NCBI GenBank assembly: GCA_964603655.1 | Contig: CAZRVZ010000045.1 | Location: 790-64,789, forward strand | Direction of reading: 5' to 3' | Length of the DNA stretch: 64,000 nucleotides | DNA from: an uncultured Pseudobdellovibrionaceae bacterium | Lineage (GTDB): Bacteria; Bdellovibrionota; FAC87; UBA2466 | Part shown: positions 34,936 to 54,641 of the stretch, piece by piece | How positions within the stretch are numbered: the first letter of the stretch is position 1 | How the letters are laid out: every line of letters starts with the position of its first letter | Notes under the pieces: generated by a model | What the model saw: the letters and a program-made list of their open reading frames with translations, nothing else | Told to the model about the DNA's origin: nothing | Databases searched by the model: none | Made by a program: the position numbers and the translations under genes

Positions 34936-35124
34936 ATGAAAAAAGTCCACTCACCTCAAGAACTTAGCGTCGTTCCGGTTACCGTGAATCTCAAGTCGTA
35001 TATCTTGAGAGACCTCAAGGCTATGGAAAAAAACACCAAAAAATCGGTGGATGATCTCGTTACCACCGCGTTACTCATGTTTATCGCAACGCATAATGAT
35101 TTTCTGGGCAGGCCGAGGTCTTGA
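34936..35124 (+). CDS. small ribbon-helix-helix-like protein (possible regulator)
   Basis: 62 aa. VTVNLKSYILRDLKAMEKNTKKSVDDLVTTALLMFI fits a beta-strand then helix-turn-helix (CopG/ParD) pattern. It sits at the island boundary. Confidence 0.3.
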   Translation: MKKVHSPQELSVVPVTVNLKSYILRDLKAMEKNTKKSVDDLVTTALLMFIATHNDFLGRPRS

Positions 35125-36732
35125 TTACTTTTTCGGAACGAAATTAAACCCTTTGCTCTCCCCGTTGCTCTCCCCGTTGTTCTCCCCGTTGCTCTCCCCG
35201 TTGCTCTCATAGATCTCATCAGTCTCTTGAGGCTGCTGCGACTGAGGCTCCGCCACCCGAGACTCAGCAACGGGCAATTGACCAAAAAGCTGCCCCCCGC
35301 TGACTACCAAATCGGGAATAATCTCCTCTTCCCAGCGCTCCAGAGGAATACGGTCGAGTCCAGGGTTTTCCTTGCGACTAAGACTAACCATCTTCGTGAA
35401 GAAACGCTCCAAAAACTCGTCAGACAACAAATCTTTTCCACGCTCCCTGAGTCCGAGCGATTTTCCTTCGCTCTCGAGCTCCAGGAGACTTAATAGCGCA
35501 ACCCCAGACACTATTTGGAGACTGGCCTGCTGGAGTCCGTTCTGAAATGTCTGCCCGTTCTTTTCCATGGCAAATGGACACTGGTAAAATCTCAGGCGGG
35601 GGTGGCTTCTCCATGCGGCGATAAACATGGATAAAAGCGGTTTTGGAAGTAGATCGGCCATCGTTGAAATATAAACTTCGCGGTGTTTCTGGCGAACGGC
35701 TTCACCCTGTTCGAGACGGGTTTCCTGAGCCAGCTGGGCATCGTAATACCGTGAAATCGCGATACTCGTGACCGGAATGGCAAGGAGTAATGCCGGCAAT
35801 GAGGCTCGTCGCCAATATTTACCGGTACGGGTGATCGAACGTGCCGCAGAGCTTTTGACGTTTCGAATTGCACTTAGAGTCAATTCGAGGTGCAGCGCGC
35901 GCGCCCCGGGCGTGGACCCGATTTTGATCGTCTGTCCCTCACCAACAGGAAGGTAGTCAACAATTCCACCGGCATCCTTAAAAATGGCATCCGTACTTTT
36001 CGGGTGCGGAATCTGGCGCCGACTCGCGGCCTTGACTATCTCCCCGACGCGCTGGGTTTCCATGGCGCTTCGCAGATTCTCATAAGCGTTCGAATGAAGC
36101 TCCATCGCTCTTTCAATCGTAGGGCGACCACTCGTTGCGTCCCCGGGTGAATCGACACCCGAAGCGATATCCGCTCCAAGCTTTAGGGCCTTACCTCTCA
36201 CCGACGAACTGATACGGTCCGATTGCAGCCATACATCCAACTCATCTTTCGACAGCTGCGTCAGCGCCGCGGCAAGTCCCTTCTCTGCCCGGATCCAGTC
36301 CTTATAAAGATCCACAAATTTCGTTGGTTTTGAACCCGCCTCTCCGACGCTTTTAAAATCGAAGGAATTTGTCGCTAAATCTTTCAACGTCGCGATCTCA
36401 TGATTCCATACCGCGACATTCATGCGCATCCGGCGCCACGCAATTGCGTACACAATCATCTCCAGTGCGCCCGCGGACACTCCCATGTAAAAGGACTGCG
36501 GGTCTTTCCACGCAAACTGCAAAAACTCCGTAGGAATGCTCGTCCATTTCGATTTGTTATCGGACACCACGGCCCGTCTCTCGGCGATTTTATTGCGTTC
36601 CATCTCAATGGACTGGTGCAATCGATTCAGTTCGGTAAGCAGGCTCTCGCTCTGCTGTGACGAAGTGTCTTCACACACCGATAGAGACCCCAGACAACCC
36701 ACAAGAACCCAAGCTGTCAGTCGACTGCGCAT
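35125..36732 (-). CDS. secreted hypothetical protein with internal hydrophobic segment and C-terminal (SNGE)n repeats
   Basis: Signal peptide MRSRLTAWVLVGCLGSLSV. Hydrophobic stretch ASLPALLLAIPVTSIAI. C-terminus ESNGESNGENNGESNGESKG. Confidence 0.5.
   Translation of the reverse strand: MRSRLTAWVLVGCLGSLSVCEDTSSQQSESLLTELNRLHQSIEMERNKIAERRAVVSDNKSKWTSIPTEFLQFAWKDPQSFYMGVSAGALEMIVYAIAWRRMRMNVAVWNHEIATLKDLATNSFDFKSVGEAGSKPTKFVDLYKDWIRAEKGLAAALTQLSKDELDVWLQSDRISSSVRGKALKLGADIASGVDSPGDATSGRPTIERAMELHSNAYENLRSAMETQRVGEIVKAASRRQIPHPKSTDAIFKDAGGIVDYLPVGEGQTIKIGSTPGARALHLELTLSAIRNVKSSAARSITRTGKYWRRASLPALLLAIPVTSIAISRYYDAQLAQETRLEQGEAVRQKHREVYISTMADLLPKPLLSMFIAAWRSHPRLRFYQCPFAMEKNGQTFQNGLQQASLQIVSGVALLSLLELESEGKSLGLRERGKDLLSDEFLERFFTKMVSLSRKENPGLDRIPLERWEEEIIPDLVVSGGQLFGQLPVAESRVAEPQSQQPQETDEIYESNGESNGENNGESNGESKGFNFVPKK
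35153..35208. repeat. 12-bp tandem repeat (about 4.7 copies, ttgctctccccg)
   Basis: Direct repeats seen in the sequence. They encode the SNGE repeats at the 3' end of the 535-aa gene. Confidence 0.8.
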
Positions 36733-36870
36733 CTTTAAAACCCCAAAAAAAGACGTGTTGAGAACTCGGGTTTTATCCTGTTTTCTCCCGTTGATTCAAT
36801 GGGTTTGCAGTCAATGTATTGATTTACCAAACCTTTTTTTGCTAAAACTCTCTTCGCCCAAACAATCACC

Positions 36871-39800
36871 ATGTACCGAAACCCTATCATTTCAATGTTC
36901 ATTTTCGTCTGGGTATTGTTTTTCTGGGCACTACCGAGCCTAGCCGCCGACTCGCCTGTCGCGGAGCAGATTGCCCGCATGGAATCGCAGGTCGCAGAGT
37001 TGCAAAGGCGAATGCCGGTCACGGAGTCCGAGCGCAAGACCATAACCGGTTTGGCCGAAACGGGAATCACGCAATCGGCGAACCTGCAGGCGCAACTCGT
37101 GAAAGAGTGGGACGGGTTTCTGATTCGGCTCCGAGTTCCGGATAATGAGCGGACCGAGTTTAATAAACTGTTTAGCTCCGACGCGGCAGATTCAGGCCAT
37201 CTGGCAGCCTTTCCGGGTACCATCACGCTCCTCAGAGCCCATGTACTTCAAGGAAATCAAGCGCCGATGCAGATGGGACTCGAGCTGATGGTCGCTGGTC
37301 TTCGCATGACCCATTACCGGCTCGTTTGTTTTCACGCCCTGCAATCCGCTACTGCGAGTCCACCCATCCCGCTCGCTGATTTCGATAAGCTACTTCTTTC
37401 GCATTATAGCCAGCTCGCTCTTCTTTTCTCGCTGTACCCGGAATTCCCGGAAATTCTTATGGGTGCTCTCAGAAATAAAACAAACCAGCTGGACTTTTCA
37501 AAACTCATTCCCCTTCTAAATATTTTTTCTACTGGCCCACCCATGACAACCCTGCCGGCGGAATTCGCTGGGCCTGGTAAATTCAGTGCGACTAAGTTGG
37601 CCAACCTACTTGGTATTGGTGAAGGTACTCTGAAGGGCGTGCTCAATGCCGTCGCCACCGCTGAAATAACCACCCAGGAGTTGGAGCACTATCACCTCAC
37701 CCATTATCCACAGTCGGCAAAGCAGGAGGTTCTTGAACACCTGGCGGTCGTGCTCAGGAATGTTCCAGGGCTTCGTGAATGTGTGAATCTCACGAAGTCA
37801 TTTTCAGATAGCCAATCCAAGCCCACAAGCTACAGCGATTTCGAAGGAGCGCCCTGTGATTTCAAGGCTTACGAGGGTGCACTTCGGCGCTATGTTGGTT
37901 TTTACCGCGCCAATCAGGGGACAACGCTCCTTCCAACACTCGAGGATTTCTTTAAGACTTCAGCCGATAATTTTCGAACTCAGAGCGAGATGCGTGACGC
38001 GCTTGGGTCCCATATTTTAACCGACGCAACTGATGACTTTAAAAAACAATGGCCAGCCATCGAAGATCGAATCTTTCAAAACCCCGATACCATTGAACGC
38101 TGGAAAACAACCGACGCTCTTACGCTCACACGGGATCTTAAGGATGTACTATCCAATTCTGGCATTCAGATACAGGAAGGCTTAGACATCAATTACTCCG
38201 AAAACCTCAACCAGGCCGAACATCTCGTTTCCAACCTTAAAAACATGGACACCAACGCCCGCACTTCAGCCGGTGAAATTGTGTCGATAGACTCCCAAAC
38301 GCCCTGCGAGACATTTTTGAGAAAAGACCGATCCGATAATCGGGTCATCCAGACCGTTCGCCAAGCCGAGAGCTACCCGAGCGCCGAGGAGTCTAGCCAC
38401 GGCTTTGCTCGGCTGGTCCGACTTTTTGAGGTAAAGCTTTCTAATCTAGCGACTATTCAAAACCCAGAGACGGTTCACGTCACACTGGCCGGACTCCTAG
38501 GGCAGACCATTCGCGCGCAATTACTGACCAATTACGTTCAGACACAACTCCTCTTGGGAGCTCGATTAAACCGGGACCTGAAACTTCCGCGATCGCCATT
38601 TATTCAATTGATGGAAAATCGATACGGGTACTTGAGCGCCGAGGCGATTATGGCTCAGGCAGCTGACGTTGGAGCCACGGTCATAGGTGATCCCTTTCGC
38701 AAAGACTTTCGCACCAAATTATTGAGCGCGGCAAACCAAATACAAAAACTCGACGCTCTGATCACAAGGCTTAATACCCGCGCTGAGGCTGCGCGCATGG
38801 CCCCGCCCGGACTTTCAAAGATCCTAAATATTCCACCTGAGTTTACAGGTGAGACGGATAAGAGTCAGGCGAGCCAGATGAATCAGGCCCTCATCGACCT
38901 AGCAGGTTATGTTCGGTGGGATTTTGTCGAACGCCACAGCCCCGGTAAAACCATCCATGCACTCCGAAAAATCAATTCTGCCACGCGCCTATCGATTGAT
39001 CAGTTCAAGGAACAGATCGATTGGTACTCGGGCATTGAAAACGGGCGTGTCACTCGCCCCCCTCGTTACACCGATTTTATAGGTCGAGAAGAGCTGGACA
39101 TACTTCAAAAACACCCCGTGCTCCAGGGCATGCTCATCAATCATGTCGACGCTATCATGGATGGCCCCAGAGATTATGCCGTCTGGACACGCGACCTACT
39201 CATTTCCAGGTACCCAATGCTCACTCATGTCGATGCCTCTTCGGGCCGTAAAACCGACCTCTGGAGAAACTATCGGGACCAGGATTTTGATAAAACCCTA
39301 ACAAGCCATCTGACCATGATTCAAAAGACGCTGACCCTCTTTCTCGCTGAGACGGATCTGGATACGTTTTTTAATTCGGCGATTCATAACGGAGCCCTTC
39401 TGGATTATGTGCTCCGCAGGCACCCCGATCAGAAACTGGCTAGTTGCACTGAACAACGCAGGGTCGAGGCAATTCGACTGCGCAATGAACGCATCGTGAC
39501 TGGCCTTAGTTCGCTCGCGCTAAGTTTAAGTTTAATTCCCGAGGTGGGTCCAGCGGCCGCGTTTATTCCCGGTGTTATCGCCGTAGGAATTACCGCCTCG
39601 GAAAACTCGAAGGCCAGAATGGCCGCAGCGCAGTCCCATGCCTACCAAATCGCTTCACTCGCTCAGCGATCCGATTCGGACCGCGCGCTGGACCCGGTCT
39701 ATCAGCGAAAACTGGAGGATCAGTATTTGGTTGCTCAGGTGGAGCATGTGCTCAGTATCGTAGGACTTGCCAGCGCCGGCACCATCCGCTTCTCCCGAAT

Positions 39801-40605
39801 GGCGAAGTTGTTAGGGTCTTTCGAACGTGCCATGCAGTTCAACCGGCTAAGGACAGTTCGTTTCTTTCGGGGCTGGAGGGCTACAAGCGCCGCACCATGG
39901 GTAAAGTCACTCGCGAGTTCAGGCACCAGGCTGCCCGCATTGCGCTTCGGATTAAGAGTTTTCGACATCACAAAACGATCAGGCCAAACCGCCCGTGACT
40001 TTTTCTTTTACCCCTTTCACCGTCTGGGGTTGACCGCACCCTTCGGCTCCAACTGGCGACTGCTTTCTCAATTGAATCCGGGATTATCTCGTACAAAGCG
40101 GGTTTCGATTCGACTCTGGCATTCGGTGGAGGACGGATCTCATATCATCGGTAATCTGCCACTCAGTCCCATAGGCCTACAATTTGGATCGGGTACCGCA
40201 GGGCTGTATCTGCAAGGTTATACTCTCTACGAACTCGGCAACTGGGGCTTTCAGACGTGGAGGGCCTACCAAGCCGCCGCCCGAGAGCTGGTCGTTGCAC
40301 GACTGCACGAAACGCTCCACTCAGAGCAGCCCAATTCTGAGTATATCGATCTTATCGATGCGGTTTACTCGGGCTCACTCACGGTCGAGGAGGCGGCTCG
40401 AGTAATCGAAACCAGCAGAAGTTTTGGGTTTGAAGAGGCGTTGACCGATGTGGTGAAGTCAAATGGCGCCATTGAAGCTCGAAACTCACTAGATTCCGCC
40501 AGAAAGGCTCTAGAATCACAACCAAAGTCGCCCGATCCAATTCACGAATATGCAAAGGCTCGTGCGCTCACACAGATGAGAAAAATCCTCGACCAAATCC
40601 ACTAG
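36871..40605 (+). CDS. large secreted hypothetical protein (1244 aa) with bilobed hydrophobic segment
   Basis: Signal peptide MYRNPIISMFIFVWVLFFWALPSLAADS. No recognisable catalytic domain. Hydrophobic pair LALSLSLIPEVGPAAAFIPGVIAVGITA near aa 870. Isolated HETLH near the C-terminus. Confidence 0.6.
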   Translation: MYRNPIISMFIFVWVLFFWALPSLAADSPVAEQIARMESQVAELQRRMPVTESERKTITGLAETGITQSANLQAQLVKEWDGFLIRLRVPDNERTEFNKLFSSDAADSGHLAAFPGTITLLRAHVLQGNQAPMQMGLELMVAGLRMTHYRLVCFHALQSATASPPIPLADFDKLLLSHYSQLALLFSLYPEFPEILMGALRNKTNQLDFSKLIPLLNIFSTGPPMTTLPAEFAGPGKFSATKLANLLGIGEGTLKGVLNAVATAEITTQELEHYHLTHYPQSAKQEVLEHLAVVLRNVPGLRECVNLTKSFSDSQSKPTSYSDFEGAPCDFKAYEGALRRYVGFYRANQGTTLLPTLEDFFKTSADNFRTQSEMRDALGSHILTDATDDFKKQWPAIEDRIFQNPDTIERWKTTDALTLTRDLKDVLSNSGIQIQEGLDINYSENLNQAEHLVSNLKNMDTNARTSAGEIVSIDSQTPCETFLRKDRSDNRVIQTVRQAESYPSAEESSHGFARLVRLFEVKLSNLATIQNPETVHVTLAGLLGQTIRAQLLTNYVQTQLLLGARLNRDLKLPRSPFIQLMENRYGYLSAEAIMAQAADVGATVIGDPFRKDFRTKLLSAANQIQKLDALITRLNTRAEAARMAPPGLSKILNIPPEFTGETDKSQASQMNQALIDLAGYVRWDFVERHSPGKTIHALRKINSATRLSIDQFKEQIDWYSGIENGRVTRPPRYTDFIGREELDILQKHPVLQGMLINHVDAIMDGPRDYAVWTRDLLISRYPMLTHVDASSGRKTDLWRNYRDQDFDKTLTSHLTMIQKTLTLFLAETDLDTFFNSAIHNGALLDYVLRRHPDQKLASCTEQRRVEAIRLRNERIVTGLSSLALSLSLIPEVGPAAAFIPGVIAVGITASENSKARMAAAQSHAYQIASLAQRSDSDRALDPVYQRKLEDQYLVAQVEHVLSIVGLASAGTIRFSRMAKLLGSFERAMQFNRLRTVRFFRGWRATSAAPWVKSLASSGTRLPALRFGLRVFDITKRSGQTARDFFFYPFHRLGLTAPFGSNWRLLSQLNPGLSRTKRVSIRLWHSVEDGSHIIGNLPLSPIGLQFGSGTAGLYLQGYTLYELGNWGFQTWRAYQAAARELVVARLHETLHSEQPNSEYIDLIDAVYSGSLTVEEAARVIETSRSFGFEEALTDVVKSNGAIEARNSLDSARKALESQPKSPDPIHEYAKARALTQMRKILDQIH

Positions 40606-40639
40606 AGTCACGCGCCACACTTTGAGTTAAACTATTTTT

Positions 40640-41716
40640 ATGAAACGATACCGTCTAGTCTTCCTGGTATTACCTCTCTTATTAGTCCAGTGCAGGTCCA
40701 CACCAACGGCGATCCCGAAGGACCGAGAAGTAACGATCCTTTTTCAGTCAAACCGTTATGGGAACCTCGAAACCTGCGACTGCCATACAAACCCATTTGG
40801 GGGAATCGATCGCGAACACAACGCCACCCAAGACATCAGAAAACGCACTCCGAACATTCTGATGCTGGACTCCGGAAATCTGTTCGTTCCATCGGACCGC
40901 GGAGCGCCGCTCGAGTATTATCAAAAACGCGCCAAACGCCTCGCTCCCATTTTTTTCGAGTTAGGACTCGATGTTTTTGCCCCGGGGCCGAACGATCTGC
41001 TACTGGGAGCAACTGGTTTAAAGGAATTATCAGCCTCGAACTCATTTCGCTGGGTCGCCACAAACATCCGCACAGCGGATGGCTCAGAACCATTCCCTCT
41101 AATCTTAACCTTAGAAAGAGCCGGAATCCGGTTTGCCATAATATCTGCATCCCCCACGTCCGTTAGCACCGACTGGAAGATCCTGGACCCCCTCCAAACC
41201 CTGGAAAAAATGATCCCCGAGGCGGTAAAGGCGTCCGACTTTGTGATACTGCTTTCGCAGCTCGGCAACCCTATCGATATCCAGATAGCCGAACGCTTTC
41301 CCCAGATACAACTCATCGTCGGTTCCGACTCCATCCTGTCAACGGATCGACCCCAATGGTTTGCAGGCCACACACTTATCGTTGACCCCGATCTCAATGG
41401 CTATCTTCTGGGAAAACTGGCCTTAAAACTAAAATTACCGATAAAAGGGCTGTATTCTCCGGTCGATCTCGAGATCAACGAATCACTCCTAAAGGAATAT
41501 CAAGAACGGGCGTCTGCAAAAGATGGAAAACGTTACAAGGACTACGCTGACAAATTAAAATCGCAGAGCCAGCTAAACATCCCCGAACCAGGAAGTATTT
41601 ACGACTTCGAGCTCATTAAGCTCGATGAAGCGCGATTTGGGCTCCCGAAGAATCGATTCACTCAGCACATTTTAGACATGAAGGCGTGGGTTCGAAAGGC
41701 AGCGCTCAGGAAATAG
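40640..41716 (+). CDS. lipoprotein, degenerate 5'-nucleotidase/metallophosphoesterase-like
   Basis: Lipobox LLLVQC. GGIDREHNATQDIRKRTPNILMLDSGNLF aligns to the UshA-type N-terminal domain. The NDHH metal site is replaced by SNRYGN, so the protein is likely non-catalytic. Confidence 0.4.
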   Translation: MKRYRLVFLVLPLLLVQCRSTPTAIPKDREVTILFQSNRYGNLETCDCHTNPFGGIDREHNATQDIRKRTPNILMLDSGNLFVPSDRGAPLEYYQKRAKRLAPIFFELGLDVFAPGPNDLLLGATGLKELSASNSFRWVATNIRTADGSEPFPLILTLERAGIRFAIISASPTSVSTDWKILDPLQTLEKMIPEAVKASDFVILLSQLGNPIDIQIAERFPQIQLIVGSDSILSTDRPQWFAGHTLIVDPDLNGYLLGKLALKLKLPIKGLYSPVDLEINESLLKEYQERASAKDGKRYKDYADKLKSQSQLNIPEPGSIYDFELIKLDEARFGLPKNRFTQHILDMKAWVRKAALRK

Positions 41717-41810
41717 AGAAATGATCGGATGCATTTTTACCCGAAGACTCTAGGGAATACCCCTCGCTCCAAAGGGTCGCGTGAAACGCATGCCTACTAA
41801 TAACGGTAAA

Positions 41811-42614
41811 CTAATTCAGCTCAGGCTTTCCGGTCAGAACACAGCTGCGAACCCCAGCCGGTTCAATGGCATCAGCAGCCCCTGCTCCGGAAAGTGCGGC
41901 GCGGAGGTTAGTGCTAATCGCATGAAGGCGACCATCCCGATAAGGCATGGCGTCATTCGGAAATCCTAAAAAAGCATCCCGAGCGAATTGGACTGTAAGT
42001 CCACGTCCGAGCAATTGTAGCCGATCCATTTCCACAACACTCGCGACGTTGTTAGTCCTACAAAGCGCCCGATCCGTGCAAAGCTTAGCACCTTCCTCGG
42101 CCGCTCCTAACAAGCTTGCAACTGAAGCTTGGTTAGCAACATCAGATGGCGTGGTCGGAGTGCGAAATCGATCGAGCGCTTGAGGCGCCAACCGATCGAT
42201 GATTGCCAAACGATCAGTTGACCGAGGCTGGGGCAGACCCGGCTTCGTTCCCATCGTGACCAGCTCGTTCATCGATACGACGGCATTGCCACCCGCCAAG
42301 GATTGGATCTGTTGGACAAACTCCATTCCACTCACACCGTTTGCCTTAAGTGTCTTGGATAATTCCGTATAATTAACTGTTCTGAGGTTCCCAGCCAGTC
42401 CTCGGCTTTCTAACGATCGGACGGATCCAAAAAGCACGGCCCCTTCGGAACCCAGAGCCTCTATCGCCTGCGTTTTGGAAGTTATGGTTCGCCCGATTAT
42501 CCTTTGAAAAACCTGTACCGTCTTTTCGACGCCGATCTCAGCAGGTGCCAATATATCAGCGACCGCGAATTGGATGAGAAGCATTGAAACTAGAACCGTT
42601 GCCCCGTGAAACAT
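41811..42614 (-). CDS. secreted hypothetical protein
   Basis: 267 aa with an N-terminal hydrophobic signal/anchor MFHGATVLVSMLLIQFAVA. No recognised domain. Confidence 0.45.
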   Translation of the reverse strand: MFHGATVLVSMLLIQFAVADILAPAEIGVEKTVQVFQRIIGRTITSKTQAIEALGSEGAVLFGSVRSLESRGLAGNLRTVNYTELSKTLKANGVSGMEFVQQIQSLAGGNAVVSMNELVTMGTKPGLPQPRSTDRLAIIDRLAPQALDRFRTPTTPSDVANQASVASLLGAAEEGAKLCTDRALCRTNNVASVVEMDRLQLLGRGLTVQFARDAFLGFPNDAMPYRDGRLHAISTNLRAALSGAGAADAIEPAGVRSCVLTGKPELN

Positions 42615-42861
42615 TTAAACCTCCACCAGATTCAGTTGTTAAGCTCGTCTTATGACACAGCGTATTAATGGCATCAAGCAGAAATGTGACCTATTGCGTC
42701 TTTAGCTCGATGTCTTCTTAACTCATTGATATTTCAAATATTTATTTCAGTACTTAGCATACTCATTTTTTGCCTAACGGATTGATGTTGTGAGTCATTT
42801 TACTGTATCCTCCTCGGCACCGTAAAACTGGAGAAAAGCCATCCGCACCCTTAAAGAAGTA

Positions 42862-45800: not shown

Positions 45801-48800
45801 GCACGGTCATATTAAATCTTTGCTTCCGATGCTGACCGTTCCTGTCGATCGATTAACTCCGGCACTTTGGGAACAGGCAAGAACACTTATCCTAAACGAG
45901 CTTTCATACCTGCAGGGCGTTCGATTGCCGTTTTTAAACGCCCCCTCGGATTTGGACTCGTCACGAGCGCTGCTTCTCGATTTCTCGACCTATCGTAGTC
46001 GTCTTAATCATCTAGCCCGTATCGTGCTCAATCAGGGAACCGATCCGGCCGAGATTATTCACCAGGCCGAGGACGCACTCAGAGGTCTTCGCGCCATTAC
46101 CAAACCCACCGAGATGGTTCAACGCAGGATACGAATTCTGGGATCCCAGTTATCGGACGCCAAAAAGGACTTGTCAGCGTATTCAGAACTCCGGGGACTC
46201 GTTCGTCACTATATCCCCGCTCTCGCCGAGTCCAAGCAGGCTCTAACAATGGATATGGGCTCGCTCGGGCTCACCGAACGTTGGAATGCCTACTTCGAGG
46301 ATCAACTCCTCGACAAAAATGCTCGCGTCACGCTCAAGGATCTCAATTCATTGATCGCCAAATCGCAGTTCAATCAGCCAGTGGAACCACTTGACCCTCT
46401 GAATAAATCGACTATCGAAACCATTCTCAAGGATTCCATCAGTTATTTTACAAAGCTTCAGGCAGACCCGCTCACCGAGTCTTTTTTTCACCGTGAAGCC
46501 ATTCGTCATCGCATCCAAGGCCTCCCCGATTACACTTTAAGCCACGTACCTGGTAATATCGCTGGGCCTGCACTTTTTATGGCCGGGCTCAAGGTCGTCC
46601 ACGCGCGACTCATGCCGTATCTGATGCCTCGCGGATCGACGAATGAGGAGCTTTATCAGAAATTCGTTCGCGCCTCGGTTTCGACAGGGTCAGCGACTCA
46701 GTTAGATAATCTGATCGCCATCCTGCCCAGCCCCCGAGAGGTAACGACTTCGTTACTGTCTGAGGCGCAAGAAATCTTACGCGCTCTTAACGACAAAAAT
46801 GAATCGGCACAAACCAACTTCAGGGCATTTGCTCGCTCGCTCACCGATCTGAGTGCTTCGCGGCTGAGTACTCCGGAGCTGAGTACTCCGGAGCTGAGTG
46901 CTCCGGAGCTGAGTACTTCGGGGTTTGCTCCGTTCCTGGATTCTGAAGGAACCGAGGTTTCCATCAGCTCGACCGGACCCCACTCGGAGTTGGCGTTTCC
47001 TAAGGGTATAGATACTGAACTGTCGTTTCTTAATCGGGTCATTTCAAACCTATCAGTGAGTCATCGTTCGTCGCTACTGAGTCGGGCGGGGGTGGAAACT
47101 CCAGACACCAAATCTGCTGCAGAGCTACTCAATCGACTCAGTCCAAACGACAGGTCCCGCGTATACCGACACCTCTTGACCGAGGTGGAACGCAGTATTT
47201 CAACCCACGCGAGCATTTCTACAAACCCGGTTGCCAAGGCGCTATTTCCGCAGGGGGACACGCAAGAGACACTCAGCCCGACCTGGAACGCAGATTTGGA
47301 GCGGGCCATAGCCTTCTATGAAAAAAAGTCATCCCTACTACGCAAAGGGCAAACCCCAGCGTTGACTCGACTCATCGCCTTGACCCTTTTTGAGTACCTT
47401 GCACCCATTGGCTTTCGCTTCTCGGAAAAACAACTGGTCCAGAATGCTAAGATTCCAATCGATGTTAGTCGCGATCAATTGAGTCAAGCGCCGACTGCTG
47501 TTTTAAATCATTTTATTCAGGATGTCCGTTACCGCTACTATCAGGAGGTCGCTAGCAAGTCGGGGTTTTCAGCTTTTTCAAAAAGCACATCTATAGATGA
47601 TACGAATGACATTACGAAAATAGGTCCTGAAACCGCGACACTTCGTTTACTCTTGCGTCGCACTGTCATTCCACTGTCATATGCTCTCGCTGTTATTTCG
47701 GCTGAAAGTGAAGCTCTCTTACCCTTTTGGGCAAAGTGGAAACCCGGATCCACTAGTCACCTGGCGAAAGATTTTACAGAGTGGTTTTCTAAACTTGCAT
47801 CCTTAGATTCGCTCCGTTCGTCGTGGGGTCAACCCAATTCACGCGGCATTTCGAGTCGACACCCCAGTCTCTCGAGCTTTTCGAAGTCCAAAGAATATCG
47901 CCATCTCATGGTTCATCTGGTTTCGCTCGACGCCAATCAAACTGTTTCCGATGGGACGGGAAGTTATCCGGCACTTTTGGCTCAGCTCAATTGGAGCATC
48001 AACCGGAGTGGACGTACGTTCGATAGGACCGCGCGACCCATTCCAGCACCCCCGACCTTCAGAGAGCTAGACTACCTGGTCCGTCATCTCATCGACGTTA
48101 TTGGAATCGATCTCAAACGGTTCGATTCCTGGAGGCAGCTACTCGATACCCATCAAGGTGCTCCACCGGAATTGTGGGCACTGGCCTCGCGCAGTTTGCG
48201 CGATTCGATCTCGGAAGTTGGACAGGGTGGGTTTCTCGGCGTGAAGATTGCAGCACCACAGTCAGAAAGTCCACACACGCTTTTTGGAAACCATGGTTAT
48301 ATTCCGTATCCTGTCGTCAATGCGTCTGAGAGAGAACTATTTTGTGCCACTGACGACCTGACTGATTGGCTGGGTCGAGCCGAACAGCGGCTGCACCCCC
48401 CACACACCCAGTGGCTCAGATTTGAACGGGACGCATCCATATCCCAAAAGTCCCGGCTGGATAATGAAGTGCGGGGCCAAAAAGAGTACAGCCTCTATCA
48501 TGAGATTGCCCAGATAGAATCGGATGACATGGTGGGTCTTCAGGATACTATCGATGGAAACCCTACAATCAGAAATCGATTTCAATCGCGCTGGGATCGC
48601 TGGAATGCACTACCCTTTGGAACCGCAGTCTTGCCGGCAGTCGAACTCAACTCTTTGCAAGCACAGCTGGCCAAGGACAATATTTCCTCTAAGCAATCGG
48701 AACTCGAACGCATCTTCCGAGTACGCGAAGCATTGGTCGATTTTCGCCGCACGTTGAATGAAATCAATCTACAAGAAGGCGTCAACTGGTGGAGAGAGTC

Positions 48801-51800
48801 GCGCAATCTCTTCACGGGTGATCTCGAAAATCAATTGAATCTGGCGCTGGCGCAGTTTGGAAAACAGATCGCAACCGAAGGTTGGACCGACCGATTCCCC
48901 CGGTTCCCCCAGTTCCCAATGGCCGGTCGGAATTCAAAGGGAACCTTTGCCGAGCGCCGTCGAAGTAGTATCGGGAGCGCCATCTTTCACGCTTCGCGTG
49001 CGGTGCACGATACCTTGTATAAAGGTAGATCTCCGGAAGATACGGCTCGCGTTCGGAAGATTCTCGGCGTGATGGACACCCATTTCACGCGGTCGGTTGA
49101 AGTGGGGAGCGTTCGCAAAACTCTTGAAACCACGGCCAAGAATTTGGATGAAACCTTGGCTCGTCTTTGCCTGGCCGATTTTTCTGCCATTCATTCCAAT
49201 GATGACTTTAAACGCAGCAAAGATTCGATCCTCGCCTCCGGACTTCCATTCTTTGACAGTCACCAGCAACAACTTTTTACGGATTCTCAGATGCTTCCCA
49301 GCGGGTCACAGGAAACACACAATCGTCTCATCACCTTGTCACAGGAGATTTCCGATCGCGCAAAACTCATGAAAAACATCGAGTGGGGTTTTAACGCGCT
49401 GATGGTCGTTTCATTAGTAGCCCTTGTCGCTGGAAAGAGCTCACCTTCACTGTCCCACTGGGTTCTGGCAACGGGCGCAAGACGAACCACCGCTGCAGTC
49501 GCGGCCTCACTCGTTACGATCTTGTGGGTTGGCATCGAGGCGAATGGCTATGCCGAGGATTTCCACGTTGTCCCGCAGGATCTGCGCGATAAGCTCCACA
49601 TTCGCGACTCCCAATTCAGCGGGAACAACACCTTCCTTTCACCACAAAATGCTGCAGCCCTTTTTGATGCGATCCGCACCAACGACCAAGCCCAAGTAAG
49701 TGGGTTCCGATGGACATTCCGAGTTCTTGCCGCACTCGCCGGATTTCAACTTTTGCGTCCTTGGCTGAAAGCAGCACTCGGTGGTCCGGGTTATCTGCAG
49801 AAAGTAATCAGGCATGATTTCCGTGGCATTGCCAATTCCCGGCTGCGCCATGACCTACTCACATTAGGACAGGGCAAATTTCCCAACGCGATCGCTCACC
49901 TCGAACAGTTGAGTCCGATGGAGGCGCAAGAAAAGGTGGTAGGTGCGTACCTTGCGGAACTAGGTGCCACCCGAACAGGTTCGGGAGTCTACCGCATCTC
50001 TAACACCACCGCGCGCCGACTCTCGGAAGATGCCACTCGGCAGCTCAAGCAATTATCCAAACAATTGGGAATAGACCCTAATGATTTTGGGGCCCTCTCG
50101 GATGAATCCTTAAATTTACTGTCTCCTAAAAGGGTGATGGAGGAACGCGCAAAGTCTCTGCCGCGACTGAGAGATCTTCGTTATTGGGCTGGTCGTTTTT
50201 CAGGCAACACGACCTTTCACCAGGATGAACTAATGGATGGGGTTCTCGCCATCGTCGGCGTCCAGTCAAGTATCACGTCTCGCTATGTACCGCTCTGGCT
50301 TCGCTTTTTCGGGGTGGAATACCCGACTCCCACATCACTTTCACTCTCGAAACTTCAGCGCCTCAACCAGGCGCAGCTGGATATTTTGAGTTATTACCAC
50401 CCTCGCGTCAGATACGCCCTGGCTCAACTATCGGAGGCCTCTGGCCGAACTATTCAGCCCTGGGAAATTTTTGTGCCCTCCAAGATGGCGTCTTGGACAG
50501 CGCCCAAACCCATGCGCATGCTCCTTGGCTCTGTAAAAACTCGCGCCGTTTCGGCCTCCAATGCGTTTTTGGACAGAGCCCCGTATCTTTATGAATCCCC
50601 CGAATCACGGGCTCTGGTGTCACGACAACTCCAGCGGGAGGTATTTGAAACGGCTCTCCTGGAGACGGGAGAGTCCCCGATAGCCTCTTCACTACCGTCT
50701 GAAATCCTGGATCAGGCAGCGCGCTTACGATTGGAGTATGGACGTACTCGTTTTAATTTATTAGTCGAAGAGTATTTGATTGCCGAGGGGCTCTCGCTGC
50801 CATCACACGAAAAGACTCAGCTCGAGCTACTGGGCCAACTGGTGGGTTGGGATGCATCCGCTAGAGATCTGATCCTTATCCATATTCGGTCCAAAAACCC
50901 AAGGCAGTCGGTAACCGAAACTGACATCCAGGAAGTCATCGTCGCAATGATAGACCCCAAACACCCCCGGTTTGCCGAACTGAATCGAGTGCTCCCAAAA
51001 ACCGAATCGGAGTTTCACCCTGGTACGGATGCTCCTTTTACAGAAACCGATTTGATTGATGGCCCGCTCGATCTTTCCGAGCACGCGCTAAAGCTCCGCA
51101 CTATTTTAAAAGATTATCATCCCGACACGCGCCTGCTTCAGGCCATCGCGCGATCGGACTACTCCCAAATGGCGTCAGCCCTCACGGCAAGGAGAGTTGC
51201 TCAGTTTACATCTCAAACCATGGGGACACCGGACGCAGCGGCAGATACAATGGCGGAACCAGGTGGTGAGGGCTCGCCGCGAGAACCAGAGTCACCAGTC
51301 CGACCAAGCGTCCGCCCTGCACCCAAACCGAAAATGGATCTGGCATCGATTCCCCCGCCAAGAAACGAAGCCGAGATACTTAAAGAGCGTCTGGCTGATT
51401 TGGAAAAAGGAATCCTCCCAACCGATGTGCGCGAACCGCATCGTTTGATTTCAAAGCACAATCTATTTCAAGTAGTCGATAGAACTCTACTGGTCGCACA
51501 CGCACCCAGTCACAAGAACCACATCGTAATCAACCTTTTCGCTGAGGGTGTTAGACCAGAAGGAATCGATTCGGCGCTGGGGGAATTGATAACTCACGGT
51601 CTGGCTACCGACGAAATCATCGCGGCCTATCGATACGCGTCTGATAGTCTACGCACTTTGGAGATAATAGCCCAAGCTACGGAAGCTGGAGTGGTTCAGC
51701 CATCCGAGAAGACACAACTCTTCGAGTGGTGTGTAAAGATGTACCTCGGACACCCGGAAAAATTGGCCGCGCGCGCGATGACCCCCAGCGAGTCGGCTTC

Positions 51801-53409
51801 AATACTTGGCCTTTCCGCTTTGCGTGCCCCTCAATACTCCGCCCAGACCGTGAACTTGGCCGCGGAGAAAGCAGCGGGTCGCCAAATAAATCAATCTTTT
51901 ACCCGACAGGCCAGCCGGGCCTTCGAGCTTACGCGCGACGGACAGATTCAGTCGCTACGGGATATCTCGGATGCCCTTCATTTTCCATTAGAATATTTCG
52001 ACCGCCCCGAGCTCGTGACCGGTGTACTCCACAGAATTGTTTCCTACAACGCTCGGGCGGAGCGCACATTAGCTAAACTTTATCAGGGTGCGTTCCACGA
52101 CTCGGTCGAAGATGCCCGTGTGGCACTGGTACTAGCTGATTCAAAAACTGCCAACATTACAGCCCGAATTACCGACCGGATTCGAACCTTACGTGAAGAG
52201 ATTTCGGGACGAATAGAGTTGTCCGAAAATCGGGCCATCCACGAAGAGGCTATCCGACGCCTTGAGAGAGCTCAGCACATTCTGGAATCCCCAGAAGGGA
52301 CTTTTCCGGCAAAGTACATTGCACCTAAAGTGTTTCCAGACGTTCCTCGCTCGCTCACAATATCCGAATCCTCTGCCGAAACTACTGAGTTGTTTAATAC
52401 CCATTGGGAAAACCTCATGAAAACACTGCCTGCCGAGAGACAGGCAGAACTGGGGCCACTCCTCGGTGCACTTCCAACCCAGAGTCTCAGTGGCGCTCGG
52501 CGCAATTTGTGGAAAGCGCTCGGGGCACAGCAGTTCGCTTTCGGCTCGCCGGAGCACCACCTTCAACGCAAAGCGCTTCGGCTTATTCATTCCCACTTTC
52601 TTGTCGAACAGGCAAAGCAGACCGGCTGCGTAGTAACCGATGCAGAGGTGACTTCCCTCTTTGATTCGCTGGTCCGCCACTATGTTGAGAGGGATTCCAT
52701 CCATTTTGAATTGTCAGTCGATGAAGCTGAGATTCTGATCTCGGCCAGTACCCGCTTGCGCACATCCCAGCTGGAATTTGGCAAAAATCATGAGCGCCTC
52801 GAGGAATTTTGGAAGGCACTCTCACTAGAGGGGCATTTAATAGGAAAGGGCGAAGGAAATATTTCCCAAGCACTGCACGACCAGCTCGCCCTTGCGGCGG
52901 AAACGGTCAAGGCAACACTGTATCCCGGCAAAGAGCTGTCTATTCGCCATTTCGGTTATTATGATTTGGAAACGCTCTTTCTGAGTAGCTATTCTCGTTT
53001 GCCGCTCGAGGTAGTGATCGAACCGGAGATTTTAGCCAATCGGAAACTAGTTTATCTGTTCCTGGACGGACCGGGAGTAAAGCGAGCATCGGAATTAAAG
53101 ACGAAAGGTGATTGGGTCATCGAACTCTTCACCGATGGCGCTCCATTTTCCGAAAAATTAGCCGAGACCGCCGAGTATCAGCTCGCTCAATACGAAATCT
53201 GGCGACGGCTTAAGTGGAATGCAGATCTTCCCCCGGGGCCGGCCAGAGACCGAGGTCAACAGATCCTGGAGCACGCGCTAGGCCGATTTGGCGCGTCTCC
53301 AAAGGTGGAACCCTCACTTCCAAAACTCGAGCGGCCACGACGAATTATCGTCCCCTCGGAGAATACACCCAAACCTCAGCGGCTGATTTTACCGAAGGAT
53401 TTTCAATAA
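42862..53409 (+). CDS. giant secreted hypothetical protein (3515 aa)
   Basis: Uninterrupted 10.5-kb ORF. Signal peptide MIRVLCTYLSVFLAMPPSVWA. Predominantly helical composition. Internal TM-hairpin-like pair near aa 2170-2230. A 15-bp repeat encodes STPELSTPELSAPELS. Preceded by a 247-bp AT-rich promoter region. Confidence 0.7.
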   Translation: MIRVLCTYLSVFLAMPPSVWAEPFDQMTQKAHIAQLESKAPSWNDERLKVYQAFLLASWKLSALLRDPRLGAIALIRESEDRVLLSAYKNCPSPWKEAPESSEINSTVTSLITNVQTALNALFENHVLEIGSVEIETAPEGPLTTPTVESDLNGAICIPATLISHSSTHDSLDSLIASTESAIQSVQRPIHTLLLSKVTHGGIVTNLEVRRWISWLVGLRELSAHTIHLQPNLPSNGGVQAARFSKKVGDKLSLAYRSAKNTLLTLGAAKNDLPRFEPCVGENQTSDFLCLIVPPPSALEQARDRIFHQARERAYDHGKGLEAMRRYSLIMKGVPERAVISLALGNENPELKLPACMGSSDGALMQDVYRESIQTAAKSRATNQFLQALDRVSAKYRDNSLAPPIPKTDEIYTEGHTIALSLFMTALQNQREASGRVASHLDTYNFRDFFHSQRFLDQFPDHLSGKLKLTLAFVNDELSELAPERRTAFLTGHITDTIRYVLHDSLLNFILVVASDLGIDEQAIAAEWERTFGAQWQSILEDPLLRADISQMAETVTAHINTSTTAQPTNTLEWSNQNLRTYVDALSEQAVRAAHADETYRFMESLSEWKNGGESVLSGPQTYYWNRSGIHFSPVELKPERPSDYRHLKEPLKSLAEAHRKALIDRLQSQGFNNEFVRARFALPTTDALADRILAYFDQLVAADPKKFEADRMQQRQQAFQPLLTWLNSPHARAQYDAAAGRLSTEILEADLRPFLEQVPSRESAQFTAWEAQLKAVLKTMSDTKTFRTPPDTETILKVNSRSDNRLRESISNLLREVTERGYFSDLETGLQKCLNEPEKCTSLLKSVQTILTNPALEQLYEWRVISHSLNHGINFLNYFGADGDVYAPPPVASPVPELVISLRAKLNDIWFGFPGSPPKHPSEHPLGLAKEVDALLVALSKSAHVNRTGELDGFHQSLLADFQPTISKTISEMHAFHRWHGHIKSLLPMLTVPVDRLTPALWEQARTLILNELSYLQGVRLPFLNAPSDLDSSRALLLDFSTYRSRLNHLARIVLNQGTDPAEIIHQAEDALRGLRAITKPTEMVQRRIRILGSQLSDAKKDLSAYSELRGLVRHYIPALAESKQALTMDMGSLGLTERWNAYFEDQLLDKNARVTLKDLNSLIAKSQFNQPVEPLDPLNKSTIETILKDSISYFTKLQADPLTESFFHREAIRHRIQGLPDYTLSHVPGNIAGPALFMAGLKVVHARLMPYLMPRGSTNEELYQKFVRASVSTGSATQLDNLIAILPSPREVTTSLLSEAQEILRALNDKNESAQTNFRAFARSLTDLSASRLSTPELSTPELSAPELSTSGFAPFLDSEGTEVSISSTGPHSELAFPKGIDTELSFLNRVISNLSVSHRSSLLSRAGVETPDTKSAAELLNRLSPNDRSRVYRHLLTEVERSISTHASISTNPVAKALFPQGDTQETLSPTWNADLERAIAFYEKKSSLLRKGQTPALTRLIALTLFEYLAPIGFRFSEKQLVQNAKIPIDVSRDQLSQAPTAVLNHFIQDVRYRYYQEVASKSGFSAFSKSTSIDDTNDITKIGPETATLRLLLRRTVIPLSYALAVISAESEALLPFWAKWKPGSTSHLAKDFTEWFSKLASLDSLRSSWGQPNSRGISSRHPSLSSFSKSKEYRHLMVHLVSLDANQTVSDGTGSYPALLAQLNWSINRSGRTFDRTARPIPAPPTFRELDYLVRHLIDVIGIDLKRFDSWRQLLDTHQGAPPELWALASRSLRDSISEVGQGGFLGVKIAAPQSESPHTLFGNHGYIPYPVVNASERELFCATDDLTDWLGRAEQRLHPPHTQWLRFERDASISQKSRLDNEVRGQKEYSLYHEIAQIESDDMVGLQDTIDGNPTIRNRFQSRWDRWNALPFGTAVLPAVELNSLQAQLAKDNISSKQSELERIFRVREALVDFRRTLNEINLQEGVNWWRESRNLFTGDLENQLNLALAQFGKQIATEGWTDRFPRFPQFPMAGRNSKGTFAERRRSSIGSAIFHASRAVHDTLYKGRSPEDTARVRKILGVMDTHFTRSVEVGSVRKTLETTAKNLDETLARLCLADFSAIHSNDDFKRSKDSILASGLPFFDSHQQQLFTDSQMLPSGSQETHNRLITLSQEISDRAKLMKNIEWGFNALMVVSLVALVAGKSSPSLSHWVLATGARRTTAAVAASLVTILWVGIEANGYAEDFHVVPQDLRDKLHIRDSQFSGNNTFLSPQNAAALFDAIRTNDQAQVSGFRWTFRVLAALAGFQLLRPWLKAALGGPGYLQKVIRHDFRGIANSRLRHDLLTLGQGKFPNAIAHLEQLSPMEAQEKVVGAYLAELGATRTGSGVYRISNTTARRLSEDATRQLKQLSKQLGIDPNDFGALSDESLNLLSPKRVMEERAKSLPRLRDLRYWAGRFSGNTTFHQDELMDGVLAIVGVQSSITSRYVPLWLRFFGVEYPTPTSLSLSKLQRLNQAQLDILSYYHPRVRYALAQLSEASGRTIQPWEIFVPSKMASWTAPKPMRMLLGSVKTRAVSASNAFLDRAPYLYESPESRALVSRQLQREVFETALLETGESPIASSLPSEILDQAARLRLEYGRTRFNLLVEEYLIAEGLSLPSHEKTQLELLGQLVGWDASARDLILIHIRSKNPRQSVTETDIQEVIVAMIDPKHPRFAELNRVLPKTESEFHPGTDAPFTETDLIDGPLDLSEHALKLRTILKDYHPDTRLLQAIARSDYSQMASALTARRVAQFTSQTMGTPDAAADTMAEPGGEGSPREPESPVRPSVRPAPKPKMDLASIPPPRNEAEILKERLADLEKGILPTDVREPHRLISKHNLFQVVDRTLLVAHAPSHKNHIVINLFAEGVRPEGIDSALGELITHGLATDEIIAAYRYASDSLRTLEIIAQATEAGVVQPSEKTQLFEWCVKMYLGHPEKLAARAMTPSESASILGLSALRAPQYSAQTVNLAAEKAAGRQINQSFTRQASRAFELTRDGQIQSLRDISDALHFPLEYFDRPELVTGVLHRIVSYNARAERTLAKLYQGAFHDSVEDARVALVLADSKTANITARITDRIRTLREEISGRIELSENRAIHEEAIRRLERAQHILESPEGTFPAKYIAPKVFPDVPRSLTISESSAETTELFNTHWENLMKTLPAERQAELGPLLGALPTQSLSGARRNLWKALGAQQFAFGSPEHHLQRKALRLIHSHFLVEQAKQTGCVVTDAEVTSLFDSLVRHYVERDSIHFELSVDEAEILISASTRLRTSQLEFGKNHERLEEFWKALSLEGHLIGKGEGNISQALHDQLALAAETVKATLYPGKELSIRHFGYYDLETLFLSSYSRLPLEVVIEPEILANRKLVYLFLDGPGVKRASELKTKGDWVIELFTDGAPFSEKLAETAEYQLAQYEIWRRLKWNADLPPGPARDRGQQILEHALGRFGASPKVEPSLPKLERPRRIIVPSENTPKPQRLILPKDFQ
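46864..46920. repeat. 15-bp tandem repeat (about 3.7 copies, gagctgagtactccg) inside the giant gene
   Basis: Direct repeats seen in the sequence. They encode (STPEL)n. Confidence 0.75.
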
Positions 53410-53717
53410 TCCAACAGCCTCTGTTGAATGCCGAAACACCTGGATGCGAATACAGCACCGCCAACTATTTGATAGGACGCCGATTATTAAATAATTGTTA
53501 GTGCGCGATCTAGCATACGACAGATCGAGTGCCGTCCACTACCGTAGACTAGGCAGTAGAATTACTTGGCACTGCCATTGCAGTAATAAAATATTGAGAA
53601 TTTATTTCGGTGCTCTAAAGCATTTTTGAGCTGAGCGACACTTGAAGCAGACCGTATGTGACACTGTTCCTGAGTAGCGTGCGTAGCACCGGATTTAGTT
53701 TGGTCCCCTATCCCCCA

Positions 53718-53805
53718 TGAATTGGTGAATTGGTACCAGGTACCTTTCAGGACTGCATTATTTAACACAGTCCTGAAAGGTACCTGGTACCAATTCACCA
53801 ATTCA
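53718..53805. repeat. perfect 38-bp inverted repeat (12-nt loop), hairpin/cruciform and likely bidirectional terminator
   Basis: tgaattggtgaattggtaccaggtacctttcaggactg ...cattatttaaca... cagtcctgaaaggtacctggtaccaattcaccaattca. It abuts the ppsR stop. A T-run (cttttt) follows 14 nt downstream on the plus strand. Confidence 0.8.
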
Positions 53806-53810
53806 CTAAT

Positions 53811-54641
53811 TCACCTCACTTTTTCGGGGAAACTATTGCGAATTACCTTCTCGACTTCGGCGGCAGTTTCCTCAAGTGCTTTTCCGGTAACATCGAACAC
53901 AGGCCAACGGCGATTCTTCTTAAATACCTCTTTGCAATATTCGATCTCTTCCACTACATGGTCCAAATTCGCGTACTTGGCCTCTGGGTCCTCGCCCATC
54001 TTTACCAAGCGCTCTCGGCGAATGCGCACCAGCGTATTGGCGTCGATGATAAGGCCGACCACCTTTTTTTGATCGATCTGGCCTAACGCCTCGGGTAGCG
54101 GAATTCCGTTCACTAACGGAACATTGGCGACCTTCCACCCTTTGTAGGACAGGTAGATGGAAAGTGGAGTCTTACTCGTCCGGGAAAGCCCTACCAAAAC
54201 AATATCGGCGGCCTGAAGGTTATCGGGATATCTGCCATCGTCGTGTTTTACGGTGAACTCGATGGCCTCAATTCGTCTGAAATAGTACTCGTTCACCTGA
54301 TGAAAAAGCCCCGGCTGAGAGTAGGGATCCTTTGTGAGATAGCGGCCGAGCACCTCAAGCACCGGCCCCAGAAGATCGACGCTGGGAACTCCTGATTGAG
54401 AGGACAATCCCGCGATAAATGTTCTTAAGGAATCGGAAACCACCGTATACACGATGATCGCCTTGGTCTGGTGAGCCTCTTCAAAAATGCTGGCAACCTG
54501 AGCCTCGGTTCGGATGTTCTTGTACCTGGCAATTTTTAGGCCTTCGCGCACATACTGCACCAGAGCCGCCTTAATCATCTGATCGGCTGTTTCGCCGGTA
54601 CCGTCGGACAGAACAAATACCGTAAGTCCTTCACTCATCAT
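53811..54641 (-). CDS. ppsR: PEP synthetase/pyruvate-phosphate dikinase regulatory protein (PSRP, DUF299)
   Basis: FVLSDGTGETA N-terminus and the P-loop-like GLSRTSKTPLS, typical of the kinase/pyrophosphorylase YdiA family. Confidence 0.8.
   Translation of the reverse strand: MMSEGLTVFVLSDGTGETADQMIKAALVQYVREGLKIARYKNIRTEAQVASIFEEAHQTKAIIVYTVVSDSLRTFIAGLSSQSGVPSVDLLGPVLEVLGRYLTKDPYSQPGLFHQVNEYYFRRIEAIEFTVKHDDGRYPDNLQAADIVLVGLSRTSKTPLSIYLSYKGWKVANVPLVNGIPLPEALGQIDQKKVVGLIIDANTLVRIRRERLVKMGEDPEAKYANLDHVVEEIEYCKEVFKKNRRWPVFDVTGKALEETAAEVEKVIRNSFPEKVR

Follow-up and report, generated by a model that had tools for sequence, protein, structure and literature searches.

The described systems with which the present locus is best compared are helical proteins of the bacterial cell envelope, membrane-inserting helical toxins and the very large proteins of some uncultivated bacteria. 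The locus itself comprises positions 34936-53810 of a stretch of 64,000 nucleotides (nt) of contig CAZRVZ010000045.1 (assembly GCA_964603655.1) from an uncultured Pseudobdellovibrionaceae bacterium, in the following referred to as the window, and encodes a giant protein of 3515 amino acids (aa) together with four smaller proteins having signal-like N-termini and one small open reading frame (ORF). GldM/PorM of the type IX secretion/gliding motor were considered for comparison as inner-membrane-anchored, periplasm-spanning helical envelope proteins. According to a preprint on Vibrio cholerae, CrvA and CrvB are periplasmic polymers that pattern peptidoglycan growth and are therefore called 'periskeletal' (bioRxiv 10.1101/2020.02.20.954503). 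Like these, the proteins of the present locus would be Sec-exported, helix-rich periplasmic structural proteins, encoded near cell-wall synthesis in a small dedicated module. In contrast, CrvA and CrvB are far smaller and without a membrane hairpin, and there is no evidence of polymerisation for the proteins considered here. General searches turned up no sequence relationship with CrvA, a direct comparison with CrvA not having been made.

α-Pore-forming toxins and translocation domains (colicins, ClyA, CNF1/PMT-type T) share with the giant protein a hairpin in an otherwise soluble helical protein, a likeness in working principle only, since neither sequence nor specific fold similarity is found and the hairpin loop of the giant is basic, not acidic. 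Unlike such toxins, the giant is moreover encoded in the core genome, single-copy and syntenic in eight lineages, with no immunity or secretion genes. The giant proteins of Omnitrophota reach >10,000-30,000 aa and exhibit many transmembrane segments, SecA-DEAD and carbohydrate-active or adhesion domains (bioRxiv 10.1101/2023.11.21.568195). Both they and the present family consist of very large, poorly annotated envelope-associated proteins of ultra-small or predatory uncultivated bacteria from groundwater-type samples. The family described here, however, ranges from 2.9 to 4.3 thousand aa and has one hairpin but no SecA or other recognisable domain, and an assignment of the window giant (3515 aa, one hairpin, no SecA domain) to the Omnitrophota-type class was hence rejected. 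The module around the giant is of no assignable known kind, and the giant family appears to be undescribed, as neither is covered by the sequence libraries, the solved structures or the papers of the searched corpus.

Five of the six genes located between PBP1A and ppsR belong to a clade-wide, vertically inherited module, a conclusion well supported by architecture and evolutionary pattern. Tentatively, this module can be read as a clade-specific, inner-membrane-anchored and periplasm-facing envelope scaffold of uncultivated Bdellovibrionota-type bacteria, a reading to which we assign somewhat less than an even chance. A first-pass annotation of the DNA, made from the letters alone, had listed the six ORFs with coordinates and sizes that proved exact:

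32244-34871, minus strand: PBP1A with Transgly and Transpeptidase domains (TIGR02074, 597 bits), the context anchor
34936-35124, plus strand: small conserved ORF of 62 aa
35125-36732, minus strand: gene of the 535-aa protein, divergent from the 1244-aa gene
36871-40605, plus strand: gene of the 1244-aa protein, predicted to be exported
40640-41716, plus strand: gene of the 358-aa lipoprotein
41811-42614, minus strand: gene of the 267-aa Cys protein, predicted to be secreted, divergent from the giant gene
42615-42861: divergent intergenic region of 247 bp between the 267-aa gene and the giant gene, an arrangement kept in all loci
42862-53409, plus strand: gene of the giant 3515-aa protein, predicted to be exported and all-α
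53811-54641, minus strand: PpsR-type kinase/phosphorylase, the bracket at the other end of the stretch

A giant protein family without known domains

In a word-indexed search of 5.8 billion proteins, only two matches were obtained for the giant, i.e. the giant itself and a protein of 38% identity (P0002; family members are given P numbers here) from a groundwater metagenome-assembled genome (MAG) labelled Deltaproteobacteria. In contrast, when 1.84 billion cluster representatives were searched exhaustively by HMMER with a profile built from core residues 1701-2700 of two sequences, 29 proteins were retrieved at an expect value (E) <1e-3, of which 25 reached E<1e-10; the majority of the 29 are 2,857-4,336 aa long. 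The orphan look of the giant in the word-indexed search is thus a sensitivity artefact (2 matches vs 29 representatives). A 41%-identical relative of the 1244-aa protein was missed by the word-indexed search as well. Family members are collinear with the window protein from end to end at 19-27% identity, and one of them sits on a contig of 2.98 Mb. A scan of 241 million JGI metagenome records added just two further loci, which indicates that the giant family is rare. Where members are labelled, their MAGs go by the name 'Bdellovibrionales bacterium' or 'Bdellovibrionota bacterium', which lends the initial guess of a predatory lineage support at the level of labels. Since homologs were found for each gene of the stretch, including the 29 representatives of the giant family, the genes can be regarded as real.

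None of the products of the stretch gave a Pfam match, and the same holds for 12 giants (the window protein and 11 relatives, ~46,000 residues), while a family profile of 3,308 positions retrieved nothing from the PDB sequences. PADLOC, PHROGs and PDB sequence searches yielded nothing for the large products beyond a noise-level match to LeoA (see below), and in NCBIfam only the 358-aa protein matched, below the cut-off. Together with the signal-like hydrophobic N-terminal segments which hydropathy reveals in all five proteins, this bears out the first description of the large products as lacking known domains and being exported or associated with a membrane. Searches for homology to adhesin repeats and to RHS/polymorphic toxins were negative: corresponding tandem repeat domains were not detected by Pfam in the 12 giants, the AlphaFold2 (AF2) segments are nearly all helix, and self-BLAST of the window giant gave no internal repeats. 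A toxin domain at the C-terminus and an immunity gene next to it were not found either, as the giant gene is followed by ppsR in the window and by PBP1A or the 62-aa ORF in relatives. A recurring C-terminal motif 'S/T-x-x-E-A-K/R-x-x-L-G-L' suggested a J-domain, a candidate that was rejected as no DnaJ match occurred in any of the 12 members. Paralogy among the five proteins was not detected by BLASTP, hidden Markov model (HMM) searches or hhalign, and the giant is unrelated to the 1244-aa family according to the latter two methods.

Along the giant, the following features can be distinguished (hydropathy on the Kyte-Doolittle scale, KD), all of them on the plus strand:

42862-42924: signal peptide MIRVLCTYLSVFLAMPPSVWA, followed by E after the predicted cleavage site, with a 'PPxVWA' motif at that site
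43132-43929: Cys-bearing N-terminal head, residues 91-356 (C91, C157, C279, C290, C356)
47779-50421: best-conserved core, residues 1640-2520
49378-49542: hydrophobic helical hairpin, residues 2173-2227, KD hydropathy 1.9/1.9, present family-wide
49555-49653: acidic post-hairpin motif 'EDF..P..L..L..IRDSQF.G..PLM.DE.A' of the family alignment, residues ~2232-2264
49702-49779: third helix, marginally hydrophobic, residues ~2281-2306, KD(17) 0.8-1.6 across the family

The 'PPxVWA' motif is found at the giant N-termini in every locus, whereas the remaining ORFs of the window and of ten related loci lack it, and signal peptide cleavage would be expected to occur after it. In the family alignment, the complete family signal peptide is recovered when translation starts at the TTG at 42862; the giant as called by NCBI (P0001, 3501 aa, MPPSVWA start) begins within this peptide. 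A start inside the signal peptide is also seen in the gene calls of P0016, P0026 and P0030.

Eight cysteines of the giant are near-invariant (C91, C157, C279, C290, C356, C834, C841 and C2103), their columns being kept in 16-19 of 20 members, and all eight lie N-terminal to the hairpin. The Cys content of the C-terminal part is as low as 0.17% (0.16% when 20 members are pooled; binomial P ~1e-56), compared with 1.01% in the cytoplasmic proteins of the window and 0% in exported PBP1A. The hairpin is made up of two hydrophobic helices rich in Gly and Ala and, between them, a short basic loop (GKSSPSLSHW...ARR), in which K+R amount to 2.0 vs 0.1 for D+E across the family, and is predicted to act as inner-membrane anchor. 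Within the acidic motif following it, D2233, P2238, R2248, D2249, G2254 and A2264 are invariant or nearly so. The stretch after helix 3 is again strongly basic (K+R 5.0 vs D+E 0.8), and helix 3 could possibly form a third membrane pass. Taken together, the signal peptide, the even number of conserved N-terminal cysteines and the Cys-poor C-terminal part favour an extracytoplasmic location of both large domains, with the two-helix hairpin residing at the inner membrane and its basic loop in the cytoplasm. As this loop fits the positive-inside rule, the hairpin would rather be a stable anchor than a toxin hairpin.

Structure prediction, which had been proposed as a check, was carried out on two segments of the giant, and both models are helical without a fold match in the PDB. 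For residues 1640-2520 (multiple sequence alignment of 20 sequences), AF2 returned a mean predicted local distance difference test score (pLDDT) of 67 and a predicted template modelling score (pTM) of 0.45; for residues 22-1000 (19 sequences), these values were 72.8 and 0.49, respectively, with both segments being almost entirely helix. In the core model, the hairpin sits within two ~45-residue helices, another point in favour of a stable anchor. With both models, Foldseek failed to give a significant PDB match (best E 0.38 and 0.09, TM <=0.10).

The C-terminal third of the giant is variable and holds a module of ~290 aa. In P0012, this ~294-aa module occurs in tandem (residues 3136-3429 and 3430-3700; 42% identity, E 2e-57), in P0013 and P0014 it is present as a single copy, and in P0002 it is partly recognisable. 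Its copy number hence varies among giants, with the duplication being confined to P0012.

Conservation of the module and its partner proteins

Related loci (designated by L numbers) were reached by using the better-conserved 358-aa protein as anchor as well as via the contigs of distant giants. Eight independent lineages were scored, L012 being a duplicate of L008, and all counts refer to lineages with enough flanking sequence. Conserved features are:

Cys protein of 260-327 aa, predicted to be secreted, divergent from and upstream of the giant: 9/9 assessable lineages (window, L002 and L004-L010)
UshA-like lipoprotein near the giant: 7/8 assessable lineages
1244-aa homolog (E 1e-10 to 6e-31) adjoining the giant: L007, L009 and L010; on a separate contig in the closest relative
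62-aa ORF and PBP1A-RimP-NusA-IF2 adjoining the module: 7/7 assessable lineages

In L011, the sequence upstream of the giant is limited to 2.2 kb, in which no 267-like gene is found. Giant, 267-like and UshA-like genes are thus kept together across lineages, which answers the proposed check of synteny and co-conservation, and absence from all relatives does not apply, since the genes are present there. The stretch had been described as an accessory island; instead, it represents a syntenic, vertically inherited module in all related lineages whose flanks are long enough to judge, always lying within the ppsR...PBP1A core region and containing the giant gene as single copy, even though the deepest lineages share no more than 54-57% identity in PBP1A. 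Likewise, the notion of a single island of six genes has to be replaced by two sub-modules (535/1244 and 358/267/giant), which are found on different contigs in the closest relative, and by a 62-aa ORF that goes with PBP1A. L010 displays the same order as the window, 777(-)/1265(+)/374(+)...327(-)/giant(+), with the whole block inverted relative to PBP1A, which indicates that the module genes move as a unit.

In the MAG of the closest relative, PBP1A and PpsR share 72% and 88% identity with their window counterparts, compared with 38-49% for the proteins of the stretch, and the module proteins hence evolve fast. Functionally unrelated housekeeping genes of the flanks are equally syntenic, so that adjacency to PBP1A alone is no proof of a functional link. 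An outer-membrane secretion partner, a toxin domain or an immunity gene was not found in any of the loci.

Some lineages carry additional genes in or next to the module. A 972-aa ClpB-like AAA+ protein (Clp_N, AAA, AAA_2, ClpB_D2-small) is encoded at L008 19040-21958 and L012 19079-21997, 10 nt after the giant and on the same strand, in this one lineage only. In L010, genes for a hexapeptide-repeat transferase, a family 2 glycosyltransferase (GT2) and a 546-aa protein without assignment (5696-8624) are located between the UshA-like and 327-aa genes. L002 harbours a 353-aa Lsa36-like gene (PF28316; 20145-21206) between giant and ppsR, for which tblastn revealed no counterpart in the window.

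Among the partners, the 358-aa protein offers the clearest sequence relationship. It matches NF041198 with E 9e-35 and 120.2 bits (cut-off 275) over profile positions 4-269 of 519, the SoxB N-domain with E 2e-10 (NCBIfam) and PDB entry 2z1a with E 4e-5, and thus, as judged from these matches, shares a homologous N-domain of the UshA/SoxB-type (calcineurin-like) metallophosphoesterases. The metal-binding motifs of UshA and 5'-nucleotidases are DxH, GDxxDR and GNH(E/D). In the 358-aa protein and all of its module homologs, DxH/GD/GNHE are replaced by SNR.../DSGN/PGPND, so the term 'degenerate phosphoesterase' used at first is correct. The C-terminal 5'-nucleotidase substrate-binding domain is missing, the protein ending at 358 aa, and its lipobox Cys is conserved in the homologs. 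An invariant E-x-C-x-C-H/Q (C46 and C48; nt 40775-40783) takes the place of metallophosphoesterase motif I. For a UshA-like selenoprotein family, a CxU motif has been given (PMC2398784), and the CxC of the 358-aa protein corresponds in position to this Cys-x-Sec motif. Unlike members of the NF041198/COG0737 'CxU' family, the 358-aa protein covers the N-terminal half only, scores below the cut-off, has its metal ligands replaced and is a lipoprotein tied to the giant module. Hence, the protein is a pseudo-phosphoesterase lipoprotein that may carry a thiol-redox site, and a role as folding/redox (or chaperone) partner of the giant, with its putative disulfides, is plausible.

The 1244-aa protein combines a signal peptide (KD 2.27) with four invariant cysteines and a conserved, hydrophobic Gly/Ala-rich hairpin at residues ~875-910 (nt 39493-39600), and is helical by composition. 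Its homologs, which adjoin the giant in three of the loci as listed above, are 20-43% identical. It has no Pfam or PDB match, and five family members gave nothing consistent in Pfam at E up to 1. A classification as LeoA dynamin-like protein, suggested by a PADLOC match over 109 C-terminal residues, was rejected because this match is at noise level (E 0.023) and no GTPase domain was found in Pfam or NCBIfam. The 535-aa protein displays a signal- or lipoprotein-like N-terminus and two separate, moderately hydrophobic segments (~80-98 and 309-327). Homologs are r541 (43% identity) and L4_523 (21%, E 1e-13); positional analogues of 553-1114 aa in L007-L010 show no significant similarity, and PDB sequences contain no match. 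An internal hydrophobic pair, ascribed initially to all three large proteins, is hence confirmed for the giant and, in conserved form, for the 1244-aa protein, but not for the 535-aa protein with its two separate, weaker segments. Finally, the 267-aa protein has a signal-like N-terminus (KD 2.12), cysteines conserved at three positions and, at its C-terminus, a conserved 'C(V/I)LTGxP' motif, and lacks Pfam and PDB matches. For all module proteins, we infer export from hydropathy, conserved cleavage-type motifs and cysteine statistics. In the 247-bp region between the 267-aa and giant genes, a shared promoter region for both genes is presumed; as the counts of a promoter and terminator scan were no higher than the shuffled expectation, it can only be inferred.

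A proposed envelope scaffold and competing explanations

In the scaffold reading, the giant of ~3,500 almost purely α-helical residues would be Sec-translocated via its PPxVWA signal peptide. Its N-terminal part of ~2,150 residues would fold in the periplasm, where the eight cysteines could form up to four disulfides, the hairpin would pin the protein in the inner membrane with the short basic loop directed toward the cytoplasm, and the Cys-depleted C-terminal part of ~1,200 residues would most likely be periplasmic as well. The giant would act with the hairpin-anchored 1244-aa protein and its 535-aa membrane partner, and also with the 267-aa secreted Cys protein and the CxC pseudo-phosphoesterase lipoprotein. 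Together, these proteins could build a large periplasmic scaffold or trans-envelope structure.

The single-copy distribution at a core locus and the basic hairpin loop favour such a scaffold over a diffusible toxin, as does the lack of a toxin domain, an immunity gene and an outer-membrane secretion partner in the loci. Hence, of the possibilities left side by side by the first-pass annotation, i.e. secreted effector, membrane-inserting toxin or surface structure, a surface or envelope structure is favoured. The insertion of GT2 and hexapeptide transferase genes into the L010 module points in the same direction, and an envelope module is further favoured by the partners, which are predicted to be exported too (hairpin and Cys in the 1244-aa protein, lipobox and CxC in the 358-aa protein, Cys in the 267-aa protein).

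Several points weigh against the scaffold. As no function-bearing domain or fold was recognised in any search with the module proteins, the structural role is arrived at by exclusion. The confidence of the AF2 models is moderate (pLDDT 67 and 73, pTM <0.5). Fast evolution of the module (38-49% vs 72-88% identity) would also fit conflict or contact with other cells, the second hairpin helix and helix 3 are marginally hydrophobic like those of proteins that are soluble before membrane insertion, and the adjacency to PBP1A may merely mirror the high regional synteny.

A more specific proposal is that the five genes constitute an unrecognised envelope apparatus confined to one lineage of Bdellovibrionota, with a giant periplasmic scaffold that disulfides stabilise and helical hairpins anchor. 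It would either organise wall growth or shape of the cell as a 'periskeleton' next to PBP1A or be part of the structures for contact or invasion in predatory cells, to which no proteins have yet been assigned, with the CxC lipoprotein as folding/redox factor; in this specific form, we consider it doubtful. In any case, the locus encodes ~5,900 residues of putatively exported protein without annotation, known domain or recognisable fold, in a phylum known for predation and unusual cell-envelope biology. Genes of such length impose a cost, and their retention as conserved, single-copy and syntenic genes across a deep clade makes a central envelope function very likely. Signal motif, Cys pattern, hairpin, partner genes and chromosomal address provide a handle for finding a cultivable carrier.

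Alternatively, the giant, possibly along with the 1244-aa protein, might be a prey- or host-directed membrane-inserting factor exported to the surface or contact site, whose hairpin would enter the target membrane as translocon, pore or anchor during predation. The fast divergence of the module proteins, the marginal hydrophobicity of two of the three giant helices and the affiliation with Bdellovibrionota are in line with this idea. The basic loop, the single-copy core locus and the lack of a toxin, immunity or secretion partner gene favour the scaffold, however, and we judge such a factor unlikely, though a serious rival.

A different topology would result if helix 3 crossed the membrane, as the C-terminal ~1,200 residues, including the ~290-aa modules, would then lie in the cytoplasm. 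Such a three-pass connector, a possible link between a process in the cytoplasm and a structure in the periplasm, agrees with the charge distribution (basic between the first two helices, acidic after the second and strongly basic, +5.0/-0.8, after helix 3), with the position of every conserved Cys ahead of the hairpin, and with the ClpB-like AAA+ gene 10 nt after the giant in L008 and L012. The hydrophobicity of helix 3 is, however, low (KD 0.8-1.6), many members have Arg in it, the C-terminal part is about six-fold Cys-depleted compared with cytoplasmic proteins, as is typical of exported ones, and the ClpB-like neighbour is confined to one lineage, so that this explanation is decidedly improbable.

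A recently acquired accessory or genomic island with strain-specific cargo, for which the absence of homologs in well-studied bacteria, the two word-indexed matches and the lack of known domains might speak, is refuted by synteny and can be dismissed as extremely improbable, because the chromosomal position of these genes is kept in lineages whose PBP1A proteins share 54-57% identity, GC content equals that of the flanks (0.50-0.53 inside the stretch vs 0.48-0.56), and integrase, transposase and tRNA are missing. Pfam detected no integrase or transposase domain in the window, and tRNA and Rfam scans of the window gave no tRNA and no Rfam match, in agreement with the initial statement that the stretch is not mobile-element cargo.

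The PBP1A-linked ORF and the wider window

The 62-aa ORF is 52-73% identical in L002, L006-L010 and L012 and always adjoins PBP1A in divergent orientation. Copies of 62-64 aa are located at L002 7596-7781, L006 13820-14005, L007 21052-21234, L008 21985-22158, L009 22091-22264 and L010 22375-22566, and the family shares the invariant pattern ...DLK.M...K...AL.MFIATH.D.L. Its supposed ribbon-helix-helix-like character finds weak support, with RHH_3 matching two of seven members (best E 0.017) and DUF2274 four of seven (best E 0.011); the window copy itself matches neither of them and has no PDB sequence match. Given its constant position divergent upstream of PBP1A, the ORF goes with PBP1A and not with the module, and its product is possibly a small regulator linked to PBP1A.

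Elsewhere, the window represents core chromosome, with PNPase, M16 peptidase, TruB, IF2, NusA and RimP on one side of the stretch and 2-hydroxyacid dehydrogenase, HflX, NusB, SHMT and FabF on the other. Lineage-specific NCBIfam markers were not found among the other window proteins. The lineage is rich in unannotated proteins outside the stretch, too: a 510-aa ORF (12699-14231) has no match in NCBIfam or Pfam, and ORFs at 17927-18607, 3257-4171, 1747-2667 and 1048-1683 have none in NCBIfam, all being encoded on the minus strand. Between nusB and hflX, a protein of ~130-142 aa without Pfam match is encoded (57087-57491, minus strand), the counterparts of which are found at L004 2412-2825 and L008 2298-2726, sharing 34% identity with each other (E 2e-32).

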